Part shown: positions 48,764-49,376 of the stretch, piece after piece
How the letters are laid out: each line of letters opens with the position of its first letter
How positions within the stretch are numbered: the stretch's first letter is position 1
Source of the DNA: Eledone cirrhosa
Taxonomy: Eukaryota
Length of the DNA stretch: 64,000 nt
Reading direction: 5' to 3'
NCBI GenBank assembly: GCA_964016885.1
Contig: CAXHJY010000252.1
Location: 1-64,000 of the forward strand
Notes under the pieces: model-generated
Database searches by the model: none
What the model saw: the letters and a program-made list of their open reading frames with translations, nothing else
What the model was told of the DNA's origin: nothing
Position numbers and translations under genes: made by a program

Positions 48764-49376
48764 TGAAATACGTTCCTTCACGCACAAGGCGCCAAGGTAC
48801 GCATGTATTGTCCAACCAAATGCCAATGTGGTTCAATGGCGGGTTAATAAATTAACGAGCCAGAACAAATATAAACAAGTAAACCTTGTTTATATTTGTT
48901 CTGGCTCGTTAATTTATTAACCCGCCATTGAACCACATTGGCATTTGGTTGGACAATACATGCGTACCTTGGCGCCTTGTGCGTGAAGGAACGTATTTCA
49001 TATTACTACTACCTCCACTAAGGTTGAGAACAAACCGGGTCATTCCGACTGCTGCTAGTAATAGCAGTGGCTAGTTTGACCTACCTCCTTTTGCCTCTAT
49101 CTTTGCTACGGCCCTTGATAAACCTGTTCTACATCATCCACTCTCATCCCAGGAACAGTTTTTGATAGCGCTAGTTTGTGATTTAAATTCAGGAATTTTA
49201 TATTCTTTGAATGAAAAGAACCTTCCGACGAGAATCTCTCTTTGCAACGAAGGCCGTATGGTCTCCGTTATTTTTGGGATTCGAAACCGATCGGTAAAGG
49301 TAACTATAGTAGGTAAAGTCAATTTTTTAAAATTTACTTTGAAACTTTTTCATTATTTACTAAACCTTGTTTATAT
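48764..49376 (+). mobile_element. Complete 481-nt HHR monomer preceded by a perfect inversion of its first ~118 nt
   Basis: taaaccttgtttatat occurs at 48880 and 49361. 48762-48879 mirrors 48885-49002. Confidence 0.8.
49220..49301 (+). ncRNA. Type I hammerhead ribozyme, U4C core variant
   Basis: acctt-CCGACGA-gaatctc...gggattc-GAAA-CCGATCGG-TA-aaggt. Confidence 0.8.

Follow-up and report, generated by a model that had tools for sequence, protein, structure and literature searches.

The window analysed here is a 64,000-nucleotide, microsatellite-rich stretch of the 3.0 Gb genome of Eledone cirrhosa (contig CAXHJY010000252.1, positions 1 to 64,000), and it contains a copy, truncated at its 5′ end and slightly decayed, of a 483-nt tandem unit that is non-coding. 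The copy lies between two (TA)n tracts and has two arms that meet head to head. The right arm (48880–49376, + strand; arm A, 497 nt) maps to 1.03 turns of the unit and ends at unit position 16 (here 49376), and the left arm (48761–48879, − strand; arm B, 119 nt) corresponds to unit positions 6–124 and ends at about position 124. These are the two 3′ ends, A and B, that are fixed in the family while its 5′ ends vary, with the assignment of the left end to B based on exact extension and on the recurrence of B in other copies. The two 5′-truncated arms abut at 48879/48880 in a blunt joint without added letters, and a 29-nt pattern spanning the joint has a single match in the genome. The A-to-B interval (48896–49003, + strand; 108 nt), delimited by these end classes, is the equivalent of the tail of Penelope-like elements (PLEs; PMC8557442, PMC3846280, PMC11167929). 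The left arm is exactly complementary to the segment 48885–49003 (119 nt by exact extension, 100% complementary, separated by 5 nt), in agreement with an earlier note on this DNA that had described a perfect inversion of ~118 bp. Both outer ends blend into (TA)n with 4–5 letters in common: the final 4 nt of the left tract (48730–48764) also belong to the left arm, and the right tract (49372–49495) begins within the last 5 nt of the right arm.

An exact 16-nt direct repeat (48880–48895 and 49361–49376, + strand; spacing 481) had been taken in the earlier note as the two ends of a 481-nt monomer. The match and its spacing stand, but it is not a terminal repeat: the copy at 49361–49376 marks the beginning of the second turn, and because its final 5 nt (49372–49376) double as the start of (TA)n, only 11 nt are independent of the microsatellite. 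Nor is 48880 a monomer end; it is merely the point at which arm A stops, and only 4 of 68 arm 5′ ends in the family lie within 10 nt of the equivalent position. The window copy differs from its haplotype by four substitutions (at 49022, 49059, 49226 and 49337) and by 2 nt missing near 49267, all outside the inverted 119-nt arms, and it is this private deletion that gives the 481-nt spacing. The identity of the arms, previously read as a sign of recent insertion, says little about age: copies of the family depart from the majority at just 0.64% of non-polymorphic sites, so that two clean 119-nt arms are unremarkable, and the window copy has itself acquired the changes listed. A 208-aa frame at 49075–49701 was rejected as a gene since it extends into (TA)n, and a Pfam scan of the longest frame inside the unit of the window copy (99 aa) gave no match.

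Each unit contains a single hammerhead-like motif, as had been recognized earlier, which in the window copy is a predicted type I hammerhead on the + strand at 49220–49301. It comprises a stem I of 5 bp, a core at 49225–49231, a stem II insert of 51 nt, GAAA at 49283–49286 and a stem III that is a 10-nt palindrome (49286–49295), with the predicted cut after 49296. The core of the window copy is CCGACGA, with a private C at 49226, whereas 89 of 97 copies have CTGACGA and no change elsewhere in the motif; the equivalent position is T in 495 of 499 reads of DNA run X9. Judged against the known core, this change probably impairs the predicted hammerhead of the window copy. Rfam at the gathering score has no matches across the window, and at E values up to 10 returned only hairpin and repeat noise and no hammerhead family for two copies (L001 and L011); the hammerhead assignment therefore rests on the motif scan together with the changes in the stems between subfamilies. 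Pairing is preserved where the subfamilies diverge, both in stem II of a sister copy and in stem I of the distant locus L162 (each by eye). L162 (G000:C17:7296742-7299797) and L161 represent a distant family that shares the palindromic stem III, has a period of ~484 and can otherwise hardly be aligned to the 483-nt unit.

Several other repeats are present in the window. A second, unrelated hammerhead family adjoins the insertion on its left (48207–48535, with older copies at 47937–48089 and 48550–48730); it has perfect head-to-head arms (138 nt), a palindromic stem III and two ends, and three adjacent and two distant pairs in 25 loci all consist of one of each (by eye). Further hammerhead-like motifs are at 1849, 12872, 16934, 33695, 33873, 45584, 47663, 54467 and 55239, and belong to at least two other repeat families; those at 33695 (−) and 33873 (+) are again head to head. 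A tandem array at 15096–15832 has an 88–97-nt unit with a tRNA-derived look (by eye).

The repeat family and its two fixed ends

The family comprises at least 1,142 unit copies, this being the number of genome matches to an exact 25-mer of the unit (reversed control, 0), and a sister subfamily that is ~80% identical has 694 matches to its own 21-mer. A DNA search gave 134 matches in the best 40 of 1,667 candidates, with neighbours spaced 483 nt apart. In the fetched loci the spacing of adjacent hammerheads is 483 in 40 of 59 distinct intervals and 481–485 in 54 of the 59, and we rejected 481 as the family period. The copies form head-to-tail arrays in (TA)n, mostly of one or two units, the longest having 10.2 (L195) and 8.8 (L194) units. 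No longer linear parent was found among the mapped copies, which share no continuation beyond the unit. The collected copies thus show the head-to-tail multimers that the earlier note had expected, albeit with a period of 483 rather than 481, and they are not colinear pieces of a longer linear element, the finding that would have spoken against its reading. Its inference of a circular or multimeric template is supported by these multimers of up to 10.2 units, and a circle is favoured. Run X9 has the tandem joint in 76 raw DNA reads, and contigs of runs X4 and X6 contain it as well. One X4 contig (contig 9; 513 nt) is a self-closing copy of one unit haplotype, although the run is labelled as another organism and its kind is guessed; for this reason, and since tandem DNA yields the same shape, we do not count it as evidence of a circle.

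The unit has a GC content of 0.39, and the element consists of this 483-nt unit alone, with no RT plus GIY-YIG open reading frame. The arm 5′ ends are scattered over the unit, and LTR-type boundaries are not indicated. By these sequence features the family fits non-LTR retrozymes, i.e. non-autonomous Penelope-like elements. Like the metazoan non-LTR retrozymes described by Cervera and de la Pena (2020, PMC7229834), it has a short non-coding tandem unit with one putative type I hammerhead per unit, a low GC content (39%, the class being under 45%), and a dispersed distribution as monomers to multimers. The unit is longer than the tested retrozyme examples (150–400 nt) and lies within the range of 51–972 given in 10.64898/2026.07.22.740005. 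Departures from the retrozymes described in the accessible text of these sources are the long stem II and the palindromic stem III.

The distribution of ends A and B was scored in two samples. The first consists of 58 distinct insertions from the 90 best-scoring loci and is biased toward close relatives. Head-to-head insertions account for 34 of the 58, with 30 A+B, no A+A, no B+B, two A plus another end and two B plus another end; the 24 one-armed insertions end at A (19) or B (5). The second sample has 37 loci, 18 of them distinct loci from the first 30 25-mer matches in chromosome order and 19 hand-picked regions that favoured places with multiple hits (L193, a PLE fusion, was omitted). Seventeen are head to head, with 14 A+B, one A+A (L174), no B+B and two others. 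Together the 51 head-to-head insertions include 44 A+B, one A+A, no B+B and six others, and the probability of at least 44 of 45 A+B at even odds is 1e-12. In the sister subfamily, all eight two-armed insertions among 22 inspected by eye are also A+B. The window locus is a plain A+B insertion, and the family as a whole has a PLE-type footprint, with an inverted 5′ copy, a one-sided tail and an AT-rich target.

Penelope-like elements in the same genome

There are at least 10,596 GIY-YIG candidates in the genome. One PLE family, coding for an RT with a C-terminal GIY-YIG-type domain, is inserted in (TA)n and has two 3′ ends ~60 nt apart, both of which blend into (TA)n. Twelve head-to-head pairs were parsed in 33 loci of this family: nine are clean A+B, one is A+B at the edge of the locus, one is cut by the edge, and one was mis-parsed (L244, which by eye is B then A); none is A+A or B+B. 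The same two-end A+B rule is therefore present in an autonomous PLE of the Eledone cirrhosa genome. Two copies, L243:1669-5187 and L244:1706-4546, have near-intact open reading frames (1173 and 947 aa, respectively, stop to stop), a minimal hammerhead and a ~60-nt tail. In Pfam comparisons L244 matches RVT_1 weakly (E 0.0016) and L193 and L243 have no match; the frames were assigned by a YVDD motif, a cysteine motif and a GIY-YIG-like end (by eye), and by BLASTP similarity (3e-12) to L116, which has both RVT_1 and GIY-YIG Pfam matches.

A single locus joins the two kinds of element. In L193:699-2862 (G000:C1:88087000-88095000), a fusion bounded on each side by a (TA)n tract combines 1.3 units of a sister copy with the 3′ half of a PLE, and the PLE part has YVDD, the cysteine motif, a GIY-YIG-like end and, in its 3′ part, a minimal hammerhead. 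This may reflect a template switch or a later deletion and, if the former, would name the partner enzyme. Apart from this fusion, comparison of the unit with 81 PLE-bearing loci, a small part of the 10,596 candidates, gave no similarity, and no palindromic-stem hammerhead was found in 45 GIY-YIG loci. A pattern with the same stem III and a shorter stem II occurs at two places, neither of which has an open reading frame of at least 140 aa.

Non-LTR retrozymes, their circles and their rolling reverse transcription by PLEs have been proposed previously (PMC7229834, PMC7761336), and a PLE origin of retrozymes has been argued by Li, Clavereau and Pollet (2026, 10.64898/2026.07.22.740005). PLEs, for their part, are known to insert into (TA)n, to have inverted 5′ copies and to carry a tail at one end (Craig 2021, PMC8557442; Arkhipova 2013, PMC3846280), and a PLE protein has been reported to cut and extend both strands in vitro, with two start sites that bound the tail and a predicted dimer (Frangieh 2024, PMC11167929). 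The 483-nt family resembles the EN+ PLEs of these accounts in its head-to-head inverted copy, one-end tail, microsatellite target, hammerhead near the 3′ end and two start sites, but differs in that it has no open reading frame, the repeat unit is the entire element, and the tail is 108 nt rather than 30–40 nt. Both ends here share 4–5 nt with (TA)n, whereas the start sites of the anole PLE (PMC11167929) are non-homologous to the cut DNA and the same on both strands; and the A+B pairing, counted here, is treated only qualitatively for EN+ PLEs in the accessible parts of those texts. The fixed ends, (TA)n target and two arms seen here are likewise without description for retrozymes in the accessible text of PMC7229834, 10.64898/2026.07.22.740005 and PMC7761336. 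More broadly, searches of the main text of openly accessible papers found no two-armed rule for retrozymes; the supplements of PMC8557442 and PMC7229834 may list the family.

Template and proposed mechanism of two-armed insertion

Fourteen positions in the family are polymorphic, and they provide a record of the templates used. Of 274 polymorphic site pairs between opposite arms of the same insertion, 261 are concordant where 154 would be expected, and between tandem units 372 of 380 are concordant against an expectation of 218; full haplotypes agree in 22 of 23 informative insertions; in permutations the mean is 23% and the maximum 57%, and none of 5000 reaches the observed value. Tandem units differ overall by 1.05%, arms by 1.3% and insertions by 2.2%, and in the second sample an arm differs from its own partner by 1.4% compared to 6.9% otherwise, with the own arm closest in 10 of 14 cases. 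One example is L195 (G000:C1:149203500-149212500), where a 10.2-unit arm faces a 1.9-unit opposite arm; there are no differences among the 10.2 units and one in 481 against the opposite arm, and the locus, which is 90% identical to the window copy, is likely a very young insertion. In L194 there are two differences among 8.8 units.

A simple explanation, and one that we consider probable, is that these are two-armed insertions of a non-LTR retrozyme in which both ends of a cut (TA)n target served a PLE enzyme as primers on one and the same RNA, which was probably circular. Given the strict A+B rule and the single haplotype per insertion, the simplest account is a single RNA bearing two start sites, with each DNA end using a different one of them a single time. 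We infer the RNA, its cleavage, its circularity and the enzyme alike. Transcription through an array would yield RNAs that the hammerhead cleaves, probably in dimeric form by way of the palindromic stem III, and these would then be ligated into 483-nt circles. The RT-GIY-YIG protein of a PLE would then bind the RNA and cleave both strands of (TA)n, after which the two DNA ends would prime at different sites, one at A and one at B, assisted by 4–5 nt of TA-like pairing. Displacing strands as they go, both polymerases would continue beyond the ribozyme site and cover 0.1 to 10 turns, and the two cDNA 3′ ends would be united by end-joining to give the head-to-head joint. To our knowledge, the RT of PLEs is without RNase H.

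This scheme has a likeness to the twin priming of L1 elements, in which two target ends prime on one RNA and an inverted arm results. In L1, however, the two cDNAs copy non-overlapping parts of the RNA and the second site is not fixed, whereas the 483-nt family has overlapping arms, each of which can be longer than one unit, and two fixed sites.

Most arms (25 of 32 A arms and 19 of 32 B arms) cross the predicted cut site, so that a cut linear monomer is impossible as their template, which was either a circle or an uncut multimer. Arm 5′ ends are in excess near the cut, with 15 of 102 (12/68 and 3/34) within 8 nt of it where ~3.6 are expected if they were uniform, although one of the searches was centred on the hammerhead and may have introduced a bias; this suggests some linear templates, or a pause at this site. 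An uncut linear multimer transcribed from an existing array, copied by the same enzyme from the same two start sites, would make a circle unnecessary, and we regard this as possible but rather unlikely. It accounts equally well for the A+B rule, the shared haplotypes and the read-through of the cut site; moreover, the main substrate of a PLE in vitro is uncut RNA and ribozyme mutants have no effect on its insertion (PMC11167929), and only one of nine frog retrozyme dimers cuts in vitro (10.64898/2026.07.22.740005). However, daughters of a linear multimer are never longer than their parents, yet arrays of nine and ten units exist while most copies have one or two, and the units of an array are near-identical (no differences in ~4.9 kb) in spite of a mean private change of 0.64% per copy. 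Arrays that are longer than most genomic copies and uniform in their units are explained by a circle, although assembly polishing, or a parent array that was itself very young, can also produce such uniformity. Preservation of the core in all but eight of the copies scored, and variation of the stems between subfamilies with pairing kept, also speak against a purely linear, uncut template.

There are exceptions to the single template. The arms of L039 are of different haplotypes, L007 is mixed, and in L174, L199 and L200 the arms diverge by 4–5%; these, together with the A+A structure of L174, indicate that more than one RNA is sometimes used. An origin of the arms from two RNA molecules in one complex or, for the window locus, of the left arm as a fold-back copy of the first cDNA seems to us improbable as the general explanation. 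The mixed-haplotype insertions L039 and L007 speak for two RNAs, and a germ cell might express a single haplotype at any one time, but two equal RNAs give no reason for 44 A+B insertions against one A+A and no B+B. As to fold-back, self-priming has been proposed for head-to-head PLE copies (PMC3846280), and the 5′ ends of the two arms lie within 11 nt of each other in 6 of 51 head-to-head insertions (~2.4 expected), including the window locus, where they are 5 nt apart and arm B is wholly inside arm A. Fold-back nonetheless requires matching 5′ ends, which are absent in the other 45, leaves the exact stop at B unexplained, and is at odds with 4 of 30 A+B insertions in which neither arm is contained in the other. 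Fold-back is thus possible for the window locus alone and not for the family, and of the two events that the earlier note had offered for the left end, second priming or fold-back, second priming is favoured since this end is the family's fixed end B. The head-to-head joints of L035 and L056 coincide with short palindromic sequences, at unit positions 373 and 302, respectively, where two same-sense cDNA ends could pair.

A DNA-level origin by satellite amplification, inversion or conversion, or an assembly artefact, is highly improbable: perfect palindromes can be read chimeras, and no independent record bridges the window joint among those listed (contigs cannot show absence), but the insertions are scattered over many contigs, are flanked on either side by (TA)n and have fixed 3′ but variable 5′ ends, the left arm stops exactly at the family end B, and the tandem joint recurs in raw X9 reads and in the X4 and X6 contigs.

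The element itself is of an ordinary kind, and the window copy is probably inactive. The interest of the family is that the return of retrozyme circles to DNA, and the origin of the inverted copies and one-sided tails of PLEs, are presented as open in the text of PMC7229834, PMC8557442 and PMC11167929. The 483-nt family provides a footprint that can be counted, with 44/45 A+B and a single haplotype in each insertion, and that agrees with the one left by an autonomous PLE of the same genome. It also makes the model of mobilisation by PLEs testable, with exact start sites predicted on the 483-nt RNA. A more specific form of the proposal, on which our own judgement is evenly balanced, is that each two-armed insertion records a single circular RNA that was copied by one dimer of a PLE enzyme through rolling strand displacement, simultaneously from two fixed starts, one for each DNA end. 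If true, it would account for both the inverted copy and the one-sided tail that PLEs show in general, and would be direct genomic evidence that PLEs mobilise animal retrozyme circles.
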